From assembly GCA_048939465.1 (NCBI GenBank), contig JBHLPL010000004.1, positions 10,447 through 42,446 on the forward strand: DNA of 32,000 bases, read 5' to 3'. This stretch comes from Promethearchaeota archaeon. Lineage in GTDB: Archaea > Asgardarchaeota > Odinarchaeia > Odinarchaeales > JBHLKK01. Of the stretch, positions 5,811 to 26,934 are shown in pieces. Below the pieces are notes generated by a model. It was not told the DNA's origin, made no database searches, and saw only the letters and a program-made list of their open reading frames with translations. Made by a program: the position numbers and the translations under genes. Position 1 is the first letter of the stretch; the number at the start of each line of letters is the position of its first letter.

Positions 5811-8800
5811 TTGGTCTTCATCAAGAAAATTGAAATGAAGGGGTTTAAGTCCTTTGGGAATCAAAAACTGATATCGCATTTTCCTAGGGGATTCACCGCC
5901 GTAGTCGGTCCAAACGGGAGTGGAAAGAGCAACATTTTGGATGCCTTTTGCTTTGTCTTAGGACACTTGAGCGCCAAAACAATGAGAGCCGGATCCTTCT
6001 CAGATTTGATATACTCGGGCGGGGATTCATCGCCTTCTGCCAAATATGCCCGTGTAACGCTCTACCTCGATAATTCAGATGGGGGGATCCCTATCGATTC
6101 ATCTTCAGTTGTGGTTGCCAGGGTAATAGATCAGGAGGGTCGGGGCGCTTACTGGCTAAATGGTAAGCGAGTGACAAGAAATCAAATCATCGATCTACTT
6201 GGGATGGCAGGCATTTCTCCCAACGGTTATAATATTGTTCTTCAGGGGCAACTGGCCCAGTTCATCCAAATGAGTCCAGTAGATCGAAGAATATTAATTG
6301 AACAAGTTGCAGGTATTGCAACATATGATGAAAAGAAGGAGAAAGCATTAGGCCAGCTAAAGCTAGCAGAGCAGAACCTTTCTAAAATCGAACTTCTGAT
6401 CAGAGAAGTTATGAGCGAACTGGAAAGGCTGGAAAAAGAGAAGAATGATGCAGTAAGGTGGCAAGAGCTTTCAAAAGAGATCAAGAAGTCTGAAGCCTTA
6501 GTTGTGTTTAACGAACTGCAAAATACAGAACAAGAGCTATCCGGAAATCAAATACTGATCGACGAGAAGAAGAAAAGACTTGATAGACTGGAGAAGGATG
6601 GTACTCAGCTCAGCCTAGAAGTGAGTAAGAAAAGAGAAAGATTAGAGGAAATCGATGCGGAAATTAGAACAAAACAAGAGGATGAGCTTGAGAAAGTGCG
6701 AGCTGAGATAAACGAGCTAAATCGCTTGGTATCTCAGATGGAAGCCGACTTCAGATACTTGAACAACCGATATGAAGAGGGTAAAGAAAACCTACAGAAA
6801 CTCGATCATGAGAGTAAAGAGATTGAGGATCTGATTCAAAGACTGCATAATGAGATTCAGAAATTAAAGGAGCAAAAGACCGCGATTCAGTCCAAGATTG
6901 CACAAAAGGATGAACTTACTTCCGAAATAACCCAGCACATATCCCAGAGAGATACAACATACAGCGCGAGCATAGTCAAACTCAGGAACATCCGAAAGCA
7001 ATTGGACTTGAAGAGAGGCGAGCTTGCAGATATCTCGACCCAAAAGAGCGTCATCGAAAAAGAGTTGTCCTACCTTTATGAAGATCGAAAAAGTCTAGAA
7101 TCGATACACTCAGAGAGAAGCAAGAGAGTGGAAGAAACCATAAAAAGAAAAGAAACTCTTGAGGCTGAACTTAATCAAGTCAGATCTGAGATAGAATCCC
7201 TCGAAAAGCAGAAGCGGGAGGCAGATGAAGAGACACGATTAACGGTAAAACAGCTTAGGACGACTGAGGAATTGGTAAGGAACGCGAGAGAAGAAATCAT
7301 AAAACTAAAGGTACGCATAAACTCAATCAGAGAGGCGCGAGCACGCTTTCTCAGAAGCAGACCGGCTGTGCATGAAGTGCTTGAACTACGCGATAACAAC
7401 GTTGTTGAAGGGATATTTGGAACTATAGCCGAGCTAGGCGTTGTTAGTTCTGAGTACGCAACCGCTTTGGAGGTCGCAGCTGGAGCTAGACTAAGCTATG
7501 TAGTTGTCAGGGACGACGATGTCGCTGCAAAATGCATAAACTATCTCAAACAGAAAAAGCTAGGCCAGGCTTCTTTCTTGCCTTTGAATAGATTAATTCT
7601 GCAGACACCCAAAGAACAGATCAGGGGTAAGGGTGTAGTAGCCCCTGCAATAGAGCTAATACGGTTTGAGGGGCAGTATAAGCCAGCTTTTGATTATGTT
7701 TTTGGGAGAACACTAATAGTAGACGATCTGAATACAGCCCGTTTCTTGAAAGCCGGCTCCAATCTTAGAAAAGTCACAGTCGATGGGGACGTCGTCGAGC
7801 CTAGTGGGCTAATGACGGGTGGCCATTACATCAAACCAGTCAAAATTACGCAGGAAGACGAAGAGACTCTGCCTAAGGTAGAGGAACAACTAAATGGCCT
7901 AATAAAGACCCAACTGGATCTTAGAGACAAACGAGATGGCTTAATCGCCAGCATTGACAAAGTGCAAAATGAATTACTTCAAAAGAGAGAGAAGCAGAGC
8001 GAGATTACCGCAAAATTGGAGAGCATAAACCTTCAAGTTCTGGAAGAAGAAAAGTCTCTTAACGAAATTCTTCCAAAGATGAGCGAAACTCAGGATATAG
8101 TGGACGAGAAGAAAACGAGTCTTCAGACTTTGGAAAATCAAAGTGCCAAGGTTGAAAAAGAAACACAAGAGTTATCAAGACTAAGCGAAGAGCTAAGCGA
8201 AATCGTTGAACGTTCTACTGTCGCTGAACTCAATGAGAAGATCAAAGCCCTTGAGAAGGAGCGTGAACAACTTAAGGATTCTGCCGCGAATATTGATGTC
8301 GATTTGACTCAGAATCAAACTAGGTTAAACTATCATCTTCTTCCTCGAAAAGATGAGATTCTCTCAGTCATCTCTAAACTGGAAGAAATGCTTCCCGAGC
8401 TTGAGAAAGAGCTTCTAGCCAAAGAGACTGAATTAGATGAGCAGAGAGAGATATTTGGCAAATTTCACGAAGAAAAGGGAAGAATAGAGGGCTTAATAGG
8501 AAAGCTTCAAAAAGAAAAGCAAGAAATCTATCTCGGAATCCATGAGAAGACAAACAAACTCTCCGGCATGGAAAAGGAACTCATGGATCTGCGACTTGAA
8601 ATCAATAGTCTTGAAGTCAAGGGAGATAACTATCAAAACAGGCTAGTCGATCTTAAGTCAAAAGCGCAGGAATACATTTTGTTTAAACCTCCCGAGATCG
8701 TTGAGATAGACGTTCGGAAACTAGGGGAAAGAGTTAGGGAACTTCAGGAGGAGAAGATGGCGCTTGAACCAATCAATCAGAAAGCGATACTCAGATACCC

Positions 8801-23113: not shown

Positions 23114-23476
23114 ATGACTAGCATTAATATTAAGCTTTTTGCAACATTCAGGGAGCTCATGGGTAGGAAAGAAATGAGGCTGGAGCTGGGAAATGAGGAG
23201 AAGCATACTGTGCTGGGCGCTATAGAGAAGCTGATAGAGAAGAAGGGAAGTGTCATCGGAACCAGGTTATTTGATGAAAAGGGGGATTTGAGGAAAGGTG
23301 TCCAAATCTTCCTAAATGGTAGGAAGGTTCGTACATCTAACAAGGCAGAAATCTCAATCAAAAACAATGATGAGATAGCAATCCTCCCTACAGTAGGAGG
23401 AGGCGGAGCTATCTTAGGGTTTTTACCATGTATGCCCCTTCATGATGATATCCCAGACGTTTATAATATTCTCTGA
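23114..23476 (+). CDS. MoaD/ThiS/SAMP ubiquitin-like protein with a C-terminal extension
   Basis: IKLFATFREL, IFLNGR, DEIAILPTVGG beta-grasp pattern, followed by GG and 22 further residues. Confidence 0.9.
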   Translation: MTSINIKLFATFRELMGRKEMRLELGNEEKHTVLGAIEKLIEKKGSVIGTRLFDEKGDLRKGVQIFLNGRKVRTSNKAEISIKNNDEIAILPTVGGGGAILGFLPCMPLHDDIPDVYNIL

Positions 23477-24989
23477 CACCTATACCGCTTGTCACAACAA
23501 CTTTCTTAGAATCAAATCTCTCATTGCTGATTCTTTCAGCGAGATCTAGAAGTCTTCTGCCAAAACCTCGATGCTGCCATTCATCTGACGGCTCCTCACC
23601 CACTGGTACTACGGGACCATATACATGAAGTTCTCTCACAATGGCTGAATCCGTTGCGCGGATCTCAGGCCTATGAGCTTTTTCCGAGGGTATTCTTAGT
23701 CTAAGAAAGCCAACTAGGATCTTCTGCTCAACATCATCAAAAGAGAGAAATAGCTCGATTCCTCCTGAGGATTTGTACTCTTCAACAGAAAGTTTTATGT
23801 CATTTAGCCCAGGCAGTATGCCTTTCTTTTGAAACAAATGCCCTACTTCATGACACCTGATACAATTGCAGGTTAGATCTCTTTTCGCTATCTCAGCCAG
23901 TACCACCTCTCTCAGGTTGCTCTTTTTGACTCCTTCATCTATCAAGGGAGCAGGTATGTCTCTTTGCATCCTTTGAATTCTGACCCAGCGAGGTAGGTTT
24001 GGCAAGACCTCAGACAGGAGTCCAACCATATCTTCAGTCTTGTAAGGTACATATTCACCCTTCTGCCACATCTCATAAAGCTCAGTGCCCTTGAGAACGA
24101 GACACGGATAGATCTTTAGCATATCCGGCCTAAACTTGGGTGAGGAAAAGATTCTTCTGAAGACTTCTAAGTCTTTTTTGGGATTTGAACCGGGCAGACC
24201 CGGCATAATATGGTAGCATACTTTAAGCCCCGAGTCTTTTAGGATTTGAGTGGCGCTTATTACATCTTCGACTGTATGTCCTCTTCTAATAAGCCGGTAA
24301 ATCTCACTGTATATGGTTTGAACACCTAACTCCACTCGAGTGGTTCCCATCTCGAGCATGCGATCAACATGACTTTCTTTGCTATAGTCGGGTCTTGTTT
24401 CTATAGTAATCCCAACATTTCTAACCTTAGCGATTTCAGCACGAAGCTGTGCATCTTCCAGTGTACTGCTCTCTTTTTCAGACAGAGCAATCAGACATCG
24501 GCGAACAAACCAGTATTGATAATCTAAGGGCATAGCGGGAAAGGTTCCGCCCATGATAATGAGCTCCACTTTATCTACCTTATGACCCATTGAGTCAAGT
24601 TGTAGAAGACGATTTCTAACTTGCATGAATGGATCGAAATCATTCTGGATTGCACGCATGGCCGCAGGTTCATGACCCGTATAGCTTTGCGGAGAGCCGT
24701 ACTGAGGGCCTCCGGGACAATAAACGCATCTTCCATGCGGGCATTCGTAAGGTTCCGTCATAACAGCGATAACAGCAACACCAGAAATTGTGCGAGTTGG
24801 CTTCCGTGTTAGAAGAGGGAGGAGTCTCTCTCGCTCACCGGGACTTGCAAACATCAGGATCTGTGTGTTGCTCGGCATCTCCTTTAGGTGATGCCTGCTG
24901 CATACTTCTCGTTTTACCTTGCCTACTTCGGACTTTCTGAAGTTGCCGCGCGTTAGATGTGTTATTATCTCCCTACAGACGAGTTCCAA
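23409..24989 (-). CDS. elp3: Elongator Elp3 (radical SAM + KAT), tRNA U34 carboxymethylation
   Basis: CPHGRCVYCPGG, IMGGTF, IETRPDY, RVELGVQT, MPGLPG, KIYPCLV, VRELHVYG, QHRGFG, GIGVREYY. Start placed at TTG 24989 after GAGGG (ORF track: 25073). Confidence 0.98.
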   Translation of the reverse strand: MELVCREIITHLTRGNFRKSEVGKVKREVCSRHHLKEMPSNTQILMFASPGERERLLPLLTRKPTRTISGVAVIAVMTEPYECPHGRCVYCPGGPQYGSPQSYTGHEPAAMRAIQNDFDPFMQVRNRLLQLDSMGHKVDKVELIIMGGTFPAMPLDYQYWFVRRCLIALSEKESSTLEDAQLRAEIAKVRNVGITIETRPDYSKESHVDRMLEMGTTRVELGVQTIYSEIYRLIRRGHTVEDVISATQILKDSGLKVCYHIMPGLPGSNPKKDLEVFRRIFSSPKFRPDMLKIYPCLVLKGTELYEMWQKGEYVPYKTEDMVGLLSEVLPNLPRWVRIQRMQRDIPAPLIDEGVKKSNLREVVLAEIAKRDLTCNCIRCHEVGHLFQKKGILPGLNDIKLSVEEYKSSGGIELFLSFDDVEQKILVGFLRLRIPSEKAHRPEIRATDSAIVRELHVYGPVVPVGEEPSDEWQHRGFGRRLLDLAERISNERFDSKKVVVTSGIGVREYYKRLGYHHEGAYMVKTLR

Positions 24990-25100
24990 AGGGCTTCCCT
25001 CAGATTCTGACTTGAGCGAGACTATTTTGCTGGAAGGGAAAAATACATTTATCCTATTTCGTAGAAAAACCAAAAACTAAAAGGGCAAAACAAAGCGGAA

Positions 25101-25292
25101 TTAAGAAGGTTGACCAGCTTGACGCCCGTATTTTACACGCTTTAGAAAGTTTTTCCTGTTTCGAATTCGCGGAGTCGTTTTTGCTCTCTTCTTTCCCGAT
25201 ACTTTGGGCGTCTGGCCCCTAACCTTACCAGCCTATTGACCTGATAGTCGAAGCGACATTCAGATTGTCAGGCTTCCATGAGACCCAGGCAT
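25101..25292 (-). CDS. rps30e: Ribosomal protein S30e (eS30), split by an intron: exon 1 25292-25265, exon 2 25234-25101; spliced product 53 aa [53 protein letters not shown]
   Basis: GGAGGT SD at 25304-25299; hallmark eS30 motif [16 protein letters not shown] and PRxRNR; the frame is contiguous once 30 nt are removed. Confidence 0.95.
25235..25264 (-). other. 30-nt bulge-helix-bulge (BHB) pre-mRNA intron
   Basis: Intron UCUGAAUGUCGCUUCGACUAUCAGGUCAAU. Central helix UGAC/GUCA, 3-nt bulges AA|U and AU|A, flanking helices AGCC/GGCU and CUGA/UCAG. Contains in-frame UGA and contributes the U of an in-frame UAG. Confidence 0.92.
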
Positions 25293-25590
25293 TCTTATTA
25301 CCTCCCTTGAATATGTCTTTCTCTAACATACTTATCCCCATGTGTTTGAGCATTTTCGCTTGGCTCTTTATCCCTATCATCTCTCCTACTTAAAAACTCT
25401 TCCAATCTCCCTCCCTCTTTTCATCTTAGCCTAAGGTGATGCTTCAATACTTCTTTCGCAAAATGCCTTCCATTCTTGATATAAGGAGCTGATTCGCGTA
25501 AATACCTTTTTGAGATTTCTCAACATAATAGCATAATGAGCGTTCTGGGACTGCGGATTCCGTTCTTTCTTTGGACAGTAATGCAGAAAA

Positions 25591-26226
25591 CTAGCCTATA
25601 CGGATGATTCTACCTCGTCTACTGACAACAAGTGTTTTCTCAGGTTCCTTTCTAACCAGCTTGTTTCCCTTAATGACTAACTTTGTGCCTTCGTGAATCA
25701 TGACGAGCCGATCTCTCTTGGCCATAAGATGGGATTCTCTACCTTCATTATCGATGATGTTTGCAAGCCATCCTTTCTCCTTGGAATCTAGGAAGTCGGA
25801 CGACCAATCTTCACTCTTGCGCATGAATCTATCAAATATCTGCCAGGCTCTCTCCTTAGCTTCTTCGGCAGACTCCAGATAACGGCTCCTTAAATCAGTA
25901 TCCTCGGCGGGTTCAGTGCTGGGCGCAGACCAATCCCTCCCTTGATCTAGCAACAGAAGACTGCCATCCCATTTGTGCTCTTCACTCTGACCAATTGCAC
26001 CTTGCTTTGTCTCTACGATAGCATCGACGATGAAATAGCCAAATCCGAGAAAAACGCCACCCACAGAAATCCCGTCTAGAAGAAGGGGAAAATATAGAGT
26101 ACCTGAACCTACGTTGACAAGAGCTCTTTCAGATTGTGTGATGTTTGAGTCTTTGCTGACTTTCCCCGATAGGTCACCTAACACTAGCTCATTCTTAGCA
26201 CGTTTGCGAGACTTGCTTTCATCCAT
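25591..26226 (-). CDS. Hypothetical protein (211 aa)
   Basis: Long ORF directly downstream of the ArsR-like gene (6-nt gap); no family recognised. C-terminus consists of short beta-strand-like units. Confidence 0.75.
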   Translation of the reverse strand: MDESKSRKRAKNELVLGDLSGKVSKDSNITQSERALVNVGSGTLYFPLLLDGISVGGVFLGFGYFIVDAIVETKQGAIGQSEEHKWDGSLLLLDQGRDWSAPSTEPAEDTDLRSRYLESAEEAKERAWQIFDRFMRKSEDWSSDFLDSKEKGWLANIIDNEGRESHLMAKRDRLVMIHEGTKLVIKGNKLVRKEPEKTLVVSRRGRIIRIG

Positions 26227-26232
26227 ATCTAA

Positions 26233-26934
26233 CTAGCCCTCCTCCCTCTTTTCTTCATCAGATTCTGTTTCTTTGACCTCTGTTGTTCGCATCTGATTGT
26301 GCAGATACTCAGCAAGTTTCAACGCCATTCGGCCTGGGATTGTAATAAGATATCGGCCCCTGACTCGTTCCTGAGCAATATAACCTGCTTCCTCCAATTG
26401 CTTCAGATGATGCGGGAGTGTTCCTGGTGCAAGACCAGATTCGTTCATCAAATCTTGATGATAGCGAGGACTCTCTGCAAGCAGGTATAGCAGCTTGATT
26501 CGTTCGGCACTAGCTAACGGTGATAACAGTCTGTGGGCTTCTTCTGGAGGTACAGGTCTTATTGGTTCCTCTCCTTCTTCGCTTATGAATATTTCTTTGT
26601 TTCCTTTTCGGATATACTTGCCGCTAGGTCCGACAAGAATCGTTTTTCGAAGTGTTTTATCCACCCCTCTCATCACATCCCCTATAACCAAGCTGATGTA
26701 CTCACCCAACTCCTTCCCGCGAGCATCCAAGCGCCGACCGAGTTTATCCATTCTTTCCCCGATCTCCTCATTTATTCGATCAATATGCTGTTCCTTTCTT
26801 TTCATAGGGGGTTCTTCTGTAACTCTACCCACCTGTTCTCGAAGATCGTTCATTTGCTCTTGTAGTCTGCGGATTTGCTCTTTCAGGCTCTCGGCTTCTT
26901 TCTCCTCTTTTCTTTCCTTATCTTCTTTGGCCAT
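26233..26934 (-). CDS. ArsR-family wHTH regulator with N-terminal coiled coil
   Basis: LASAERIKLLYLL...DLMNESGLAPGTLPHHLKQLEEAGYI...GRYLIT; charged heptad-rich N-terminus. Confidence 0.88.
   Translation of the reverse strand: MAKEDKERKEEKEAESLKEQIRRLQEQMNDLREQVGRVTEEPPMKRKEQHIDRINEEIGERMDKLGRRLDARGKELGEYISLVIGDVMRGVDKTLRKTILVGPSGKYIRKGNKEIFISEEGEEPIRPVPPEEAHRLLSPLASAERIKLLYLLAESPRYHQDLMNESGLAPGTLPHHLKQLEEAGYIAQERVRGRYLITIPGRMALKLAEYLHNQMRTTEVKETESDEEKREEG

Follow-up and report, generated by a model that had tools for sequence, protein, structure and literature searches.

How a cell obtains ribosomal protein eS30 (rps30e) from a gene whose reading frame closes shortly after its start is the question raised by this locus. 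The window, i.e., the whole 32,000-nt stretch of DNA that was analyzed and to which the coordinates refer, belongs to a metagenome-assembled genome (MAG; G000, 1.96 Mb in 152 contigs and 91% complete) of an Asgard archaeon of an Odinarchaeia order, the DNA of which occurs in mangrove and sediment metagenomes, such as runs X2-X9. On the minus strand, the first codons of eS30 are separated from the rest of the gene by a 30-nt insert, and translation of the unspliced frame encounters two in-frame stops, both within the insert (Table 1). The part of the gene beyond the insert contains no in-frame ATG, GTG, or TTG and gave no ORF in the ORF listing; without a start codon it is therefore not translatable by itself. 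The original prediction proposed a bulge-helix-bulge (BHB) intron in the eS30 pre-mRNA, and the bases, Shine-Dalgarno sequence, helices, bulges, and intron limits that it described all matched the minus strand. From the evidence set out below, we consider it very likely that the 30 nt at 25264-25235 constitute an archaeal BHB intron in the coding sequence of a single eS30 gene.

Table 1. Features of the eS30 locus, its neighbors, and further interrupted genes. Positions lie within the 32,000-nt window unless a genome and contig are given.
Feature	Position	Strand	Details
Shine-Dalgarno-like GGAGGT	25300-25305	-	ATG 7 nt downstream; sequence reading
eS30 start codon ATG	25292-25290	-	sequence reading
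eS30 exon 1 (ATG ... ACA A)	25265-25292	-	9 codons and base 1 of Lys10
BHB intron, 30 nt	25235-25264	-	in-frame TGA and TAG inside
eS30 exon 2 (AG GCT ... TAA)	25101-25234	-	TAA at 25103-25101
Complete hBHBh' motif	25230-25274	-	spans end of exon 1, intron, and start of exon 2
Outer helix AGCC/GGCU	25274-71 / 25233-30	-	4 bp
Central helix UGAC/GUCA	25270-67 / 25240-37	-	4 bp; separates two 3-nt bulges on opposite strands
Bulges AAU and AUA	25266-64 and 25236-34	-	3 nt each
Inner hairpin	25263-25241	-	CUGA/UCAG helix, then GUCG-CUU-CGAC
Elp3 (radical SAM plus GNAT tRNA-modification enzyme)	23409-25073	-	downstream neighbor; start codon uncertain
ThiS/Urm1-like gene	23114-23476	+	convergent to Elp3
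211-aa ORF	25591-26226	-	directly upstream of eS30
ArsR-type HTH protein	26233-26934		adjoins the 211-aa ORF
kae1/tsaD BHB insert, 25 nt	G000:C69:30130-30154 (L144 931-955)	-	splits GPGL/GPCLR
pyrG (CTP synthase) insert, 31 nt	G000:C116 just above 17803 (L145 about 1805-1835)	-	after codon 15
AdoHcyase (ahcY), match in pieces	G000:C118:315-951 (L147/L149)		TGA and TAG inside
RtcB gene with split Pfam match	G000:C31:2961-5708 (L141/L143)		one 973-aa open frame
eS30 with intron, G122	G122:C48:364-522 (L124)
eS30 with intron, G124	G124:C22:69547-69705 (L125)
eS30 with intron, G206	G206:C108 about 5900-6053 (L133)

Removal of the insert joins A and AG to form AAG, the codon of Lys10, and the resulting N-terminus is that of the intronless orthologues, which in 10 Asgard genomes begin MPG(S/T)HGSL(T/S)KAGKVR and match the predicted junction SLTKAGKV. 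Against Pfam Ribosomal_S30 (PF04758; cut-off 27), the spliced product of 53 aa scored 40.7 bits and exon 2 alone 25.1 bits; for the NCBIfam equivalog NF006817 (cut-off 75), the scores were 76.7 and 51.4 bits, respectively, such that both curated cut-offs were passed after splicing only. A profile search across the 152 contigs of the 91% complete genome identified a single eS30 locus. As read from these sequences, the cell almost certainly must splice the eS30 mRNA to express its only eS30 gene, and the single copy suggests that ribosome biogenesis would depend on this splicing.

The anatomy of the motif is that of the canonical pre-tRNA BHB, the 5' strand running outer-central-bulge-inner and the 3' strand inner-central-bulge-outer, and all 12 pairs in the outer, central, and inner core helices are Watson-Crick. 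If each bulge is cut behind its second base, exactly the 30 nt of the insert are excised. Shifting the 30-nt cut by -2, -1, +1, or +2 gave a stop, a stop, Met, and Ile, respectively, as had been claimed for the alternative registers, and of the cuts that keep codons 1-45 open, the one with the highest BHB score was the register that restores the consensus N-terminus. The strict motif (4+4+4 Watson-Crick pairs and exact 3-nt bulges), counted on both strands of the 1.96-Mb genome for intron lengths of 12-120, was found 39 times compared to 39 times in the reversed-sequence control, corresponding to a rate of about 1e-7 per site and length. With this rate and the presence of the motif at the sole register that repairs the protein, a chance coincidence is excluded even though the motif overall is not enriched.

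Comparison across Asgard genomes, as the original prediction had proposed, identified a 30-nt insert of identical length and at the same eS30 site in two congeneric species, G001 (JBHLKK01, with the NCBI label Candidatus Hodarchaeota DZ1B.307) and G002, together with compensatory changes in the BHB. The sequence GGGAGGT with its 7-nt spacing to the ATG is kept in both congeners, and the central helix, outer helix, and 3' bulge are invariant across the three species; the introns of the two congeners differ from the window's copy at 9-11 of the 30 positions. The inner helix consists of 4 bp plus a further 4-bp stem in the window's genome, 10 bp in G001, and 8 bp in G002. Two compensatory double changes (U-A to C-G and G-C to A-U) were identified in this helix and 94% of cells were paired over the three sequences, compared to 9-46% in controls with slid partners; the covariation shuffling control did not reach significance, as 61 of 500 shuffles did equally well for these three sequences and two double changes. 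The minimum free energy fold was not the BHB but a slipped form containing a 3x3 internal loop, more stable than the BHB conformer by 2.4-2.8 kcal/mol in each of the three species, and the generic z-score for folding was an unremarkable -1.2.

Codon differences counted in the spliced frame were predominantly synonymous between the window's genome and G001 (18 synonymous and 5 non-synonymous) and exclusively so between G001 and G002 (9 and 0), and all exon 1 differences from the two congeners were synonymous. These counts indicate that purifying selection acts on both eS30 exons, read in the spliced frame, in the three species. The profile scores, orthologues, sister-species conservation, and selection all agree with the claim that a BHB intron interrupts the eS30 pre-mRNA and that its removal recreates AAG. 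Other genomes of the same order in the reference taxonomy (G004, G005, and G006, all Odinarchaeota/Odinarchaeia MAGs) have an uninterrupted eS30, and the intron is younger than the split from the Odinarchaeum-like family of hot springs, in which eS30 is likewise uninterrupted.

In the proposed mechanism, eS30 would be transcribed with the insert included and AGCC-UGAC of exon 1 would pair with GUCA at the 3' end of the intron and GGCU of exon 2, forming the 4-bp central helix with its two 3-nt bulges. EndA, probably as a heteromer of two paralogues, would then cut behind the second base of each bulge and RtcB would ligate ...CUGACAA to AGGCUGG..., generating the AAG codon. The predicted spliced junction reads ...CUGACAAAGGCUGG..., split as ...CATGGAAGCCTGACAA and AGGCTGGTAAGG..., and the released 30-nt intron would probably be circular, with ...GGTCAAT at its 3' end linked to TCTGAATG... 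at its 5' end. Only the spliced mRNA would encode full-length eS30, and the unspliced mRNA would give a 10-aa peptide. A search of JGI metagenome contigs for the spliced-junction 20-mer GGAAGCCTGACAAAGGCTGG returned one match in an unrelated, non-eS30 sequence, attributed to chance. The BHB starts just 19 nt downstream of the A of the start codon AUG. Archaeal translation can begin on nascent RNA, and at this distance the endonuclease would have to contend with an initiating ribosome for the same stretch of RNA. The default reading is that of a neutral intron tolerated through efficient splicing, and a regulatory role of eS30 splicing is speculation.

The enzymes for such a reaction are encoded in the genome. 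Two EndA paralogues were identified (in the regions C90:9287-9538 and C139:31376-31636; 204 and 191 aa), each with PF02778 (N-terminal) and PF01974 (catalytic) domains, along with two RtcB genes (on C31 and C78). Inspected by eye, the second EndA paralogue has no histidine at the catalytic position, which suggests a heteromeric enzyme like that linked to cbf5 splicing, and the two paralogues probably form such an enzyme. In the RtcB gene on C31, the Pfam match is split (1-57 and 45-426) within the one open frame, in what looks like an intein insertion. ARAGORN identified only 15 tRNA genes in the genome, 12 of them with introns; most of its tRNA genes are probably too fragmented for recognition, and the counts fit a lineage with heavily interrupted tRNA genes.

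The suggestion that other genes in such genomes are hidden by BHB introns was borne out by kae1 (tsaD) and pyrG. In kae1, one exon matches the TsaD profile at 12-61 and the other, in a different frame, at 64-264; once rejoined, they read GPGLGPCLR. Removal of the pyrG insert restores VMSGI/GKGATAASIG at the junction VMSGIGKGATAASIG, with exon 2 starting at position 14 of CTP_synth_N. In ahcY, the profile was also matched in pieces (1-141 and 183-221). On this reading of the genome, the eS30 intron is one of several putative introns in protein-coding genes, and it has no sequence paralogue elsewhere in G000. A de novo search of the same genome with relaxed motifs and ORF joining passed 1187 candidates compared to 1156 at random positions, and ORF joining at relaxed motifs gave 1252 compared to 1125-1258 for registers shifted by 1-2 nt. 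The relaxed-motif counts equaled those of the reversed-sequence control; as genome-wide searches by BHB shape were without power, no genome-wide intron count is given.

Instead of being spliced out, the insert could be kept in the mRNA and handled during translation, either through ribosomal bypassing of a hairpin-containing coding gap, such as in phage T4 gene 60, or through readthrough of both stops. The gap spans only 30 nt, keeps the frame, and holds a stable hairpin, and a UGA follows soon after Thr9 in the window's genome, but no matched take-off and landing codons that would restore ...SLT-K-AGKV were identified and the codons after Thr9 differ in G001 and G002 (AGC CAA UAG), such that the take-off context is not conserved. 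Readthrough would bring 10 unconserved residues into the invariant N-terminal motif, and both forms of translational handling leave unexplained the similar inserts of 25 and 31 nt in the same genome, which shift the frame. We regard this alternative as quite improbable.

A loss of function, in which the 30-nt insertion with its stops inactivated eS30 and the protein is either dispensable or supplied by an unassembled copy, is very improbable. The two stops of the unspliced frame are what such a pseudogene would display, and a 91%-complete MAG in 152 contigs leaves room for a second copy. Against this, no second eS30 locus was found in the window's genome, where an intact paralogue had been named as the sign of a pseudogene, and all three species of the genus are interrupted alike with a second locus in none. 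The purifying selection on both exons in the spliced frame (18 versus 5 and 9 versus 0), the conserved Shine-Dalgarno sequence and start codon, and an insert that stays exactly 30 nt with a BHB and compensatory changes argue in the same direction. In a strain of approximately 95% identity in run X11 (2021), exon 2 carries 9 substitutions and the BHB is unchanged. The conserved insert and mostly synonymous exon changes within the genus and the variant-free BHB of this strain contradict a decaying pseudogene. An assembly or binning artifact, with the insert absent from the DNA of the organism, might be raised for any window from a metagenome-assembled genome and is extremely improbable here, as Logan contigs from two other studies (X6, 25164-25497; X11, 25086-25362; low-depth contigs of depth 2.9-4.2 rather than raw reads) span the 30-nt insert with no indels and no substitution in the BHB, and an insert of 30 nt recurs at this position in two other species-level genomes.

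Beyond this genus, other eS30 genes also carry putative introns. Most of the 400 Asgard genomes searched have an intact eS30, and interruptions were identified in at least three further genomes among the matches listed. Two species of another genus (G122 and G124) have a 30-nt insert 2 nt upstream of the window's site (Thr9, phase 2) with a relaxed BHB motif that has no outer helix, and in one genome of another family, the third (G206), the insert is 31 nt long and lies 10 nt downstream of the window's site (Lys13, phase 1). Including the window's intron, three eS30 intron sites lie within 12 nt, and since the introns at the other sites share no sequence with that of the window, they look like separate gains in the first 40 nt of the gene.

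Weak or longer eS30 matches in families f11, f14, f17, f31, and f32 were rejected as introns, being divergent proteins with an in-frame insertion of 6 residues. In the divergent eS30 of f11, f17, f31, and f32 (L036, L037, L038, and L134-L137), ...KVRRATLEALRMLGITPKER... replaces KVRSQTPK, an insertion at the protein level. The weak matches in G060, G184, G334, and G342 were likewise rejected, as these genes are truncated by contig ends.

The gene order around eS30 extends to relatives, with eS30 directly upstream of Elp3 in G004 as in the window, and the order kept in Odinarchaeota MAG J65_bin.29. A ThiS/Urm1-like gene lies convergent to Elp3 with a 3' end overlap of approximately 68 nt, and its product matches ThiS with 45 bits, has a weak Urm1 match, and carries GGGG followed by a 23-residue tail. 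In eukaryotes, Elp3 and Urm1 both act on the tRNA wobble uridine, and the pairing of the ThiS/Urm1-like gene with Elp3 may be functional. On the other side of eS30, the 211-aa ORF matched no Pfam family and the adjoining ArsR-type HTH protein has a long charged N-terminal region. No homing-endonuclease gene was identified beside eS30, with no LAGLIDADG, HNH, or GIY-YIG match among the neighbors, and no known RNA families or tRNAs were found in the window.

Considering eS30, kae1, and pyrG together, we lean slightly toward the view that EndA/RtcB mRNA splicing is pervasive in this Odinarchaeia-order lineage, in which these three genes and probably ahcY and others would need it, and that introns repeatedly target the first 40 nt of eS30, with independent ones at Thr9, Lys10, and Lys13 in three Asgard lineages. 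What would be new is that an Asgard archaeon has an intron of strict canonical BHB form in the gene for an essential ribosomal protein, shared throughout its genus and found alongside similar introns in kae1 and pyrG. Gene callers silently drop or truncate BHB-interrupted genes, such as eS30, where exon 2 yields no ORF, and BHB splicing of coding mRNA may be far commoner than believed. If splicing is indeed pervasive, close prokaryotic relatives of eukaryotes would routinely need to process coding mRNAs ahead of translation. How ribosomes are kept off unspliced mRNA in cells without a nucleus bears on ideas about why transcription and translation were separated in eukaryotes.

Several known systems resemble the proposed eS30 splicing. 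In eukaryotes, IRE1/RtcB splicing of HAC1/XBP1 mRNA is independent of the spliceosome and removes a short intron from a coding mRNA at paired stem-loops. The eS30 case would be analogous in that an endonuclease and RtcB release a short intron from a coding mRNA, whereas IRE1 is unrelated to EndA, the recognition motif is another, and HAC1/XBP1 splicing is a regulated stress switch. The BHB introns of tRNA genes share with the eS30 intron a common geometry, the EndA and RtcB pair, and a short hairpin intron, but the substrate in eS30 is the coding region of an mRNA. The host genome seems rich in tRNA introns as well; a 2026 preprint on Asgard tRNA introns leaves mRNA unmentioned and gives Jordiarchaeia and Atabeyarchaeia rather than Odinarchaeia as the classes with many introns.

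In the searched literature, coding-sequence BHB introns are documented for cbf5 only, along with one Haloferax 5' UTR intron, and the eS30 intron is unmentioned, in agreement with the original prediction that cbf5 is the well-characterized case and that none had been described in eS30. As of 2009, introns in other protein genes had only been predicted (PMC2738675), and a 2020 study gave cbf5 as the only example besides the Haloferax 5' UTR intron (PMC7714728). The HVO_1309 mRNA of Haloferax volcanii carries a BHB intron in its 5' UTR and is, as proposed for the eS30 mRNA, cut by the tRNA splicing endonuclease; once excised, the intron was detected as circular RNA (PMC7714728). That intron lies in an untranslated leader and leaves the frame unbroken, whereas the eS30 protein would require splicing.

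The closest counterpart is the intron of cbf5 in Crenarchaeota (Desulfurococcales and Sulfolobales), also a short BHB intron in a coding sequence (Watanabe 2002; Yoshinari 2006; Yokobori 2009, PMC2738675). The gene and phylum are different, eS30 being a ribosomal protein gene of Asgard archaea, and there is no shared sequence. Splicing of cbf5 has cDNA and in vitro support, whereas that of eS30 is predicted from sequence. Most cbf5 introns have an unconventional BHB in contrast to the strict canonical hBHBh' of eS30 (PMC2738675). For cbf5 introns, as for eS30, cleavage is predicted between the second and third bulge residues (PMC2738675). Common to both cases are the association with a hetero-oligomeric splicing endonuclease, probable in the eS30 genome, and a patchy gain and loss of the intron among relatives (PMC2738675).
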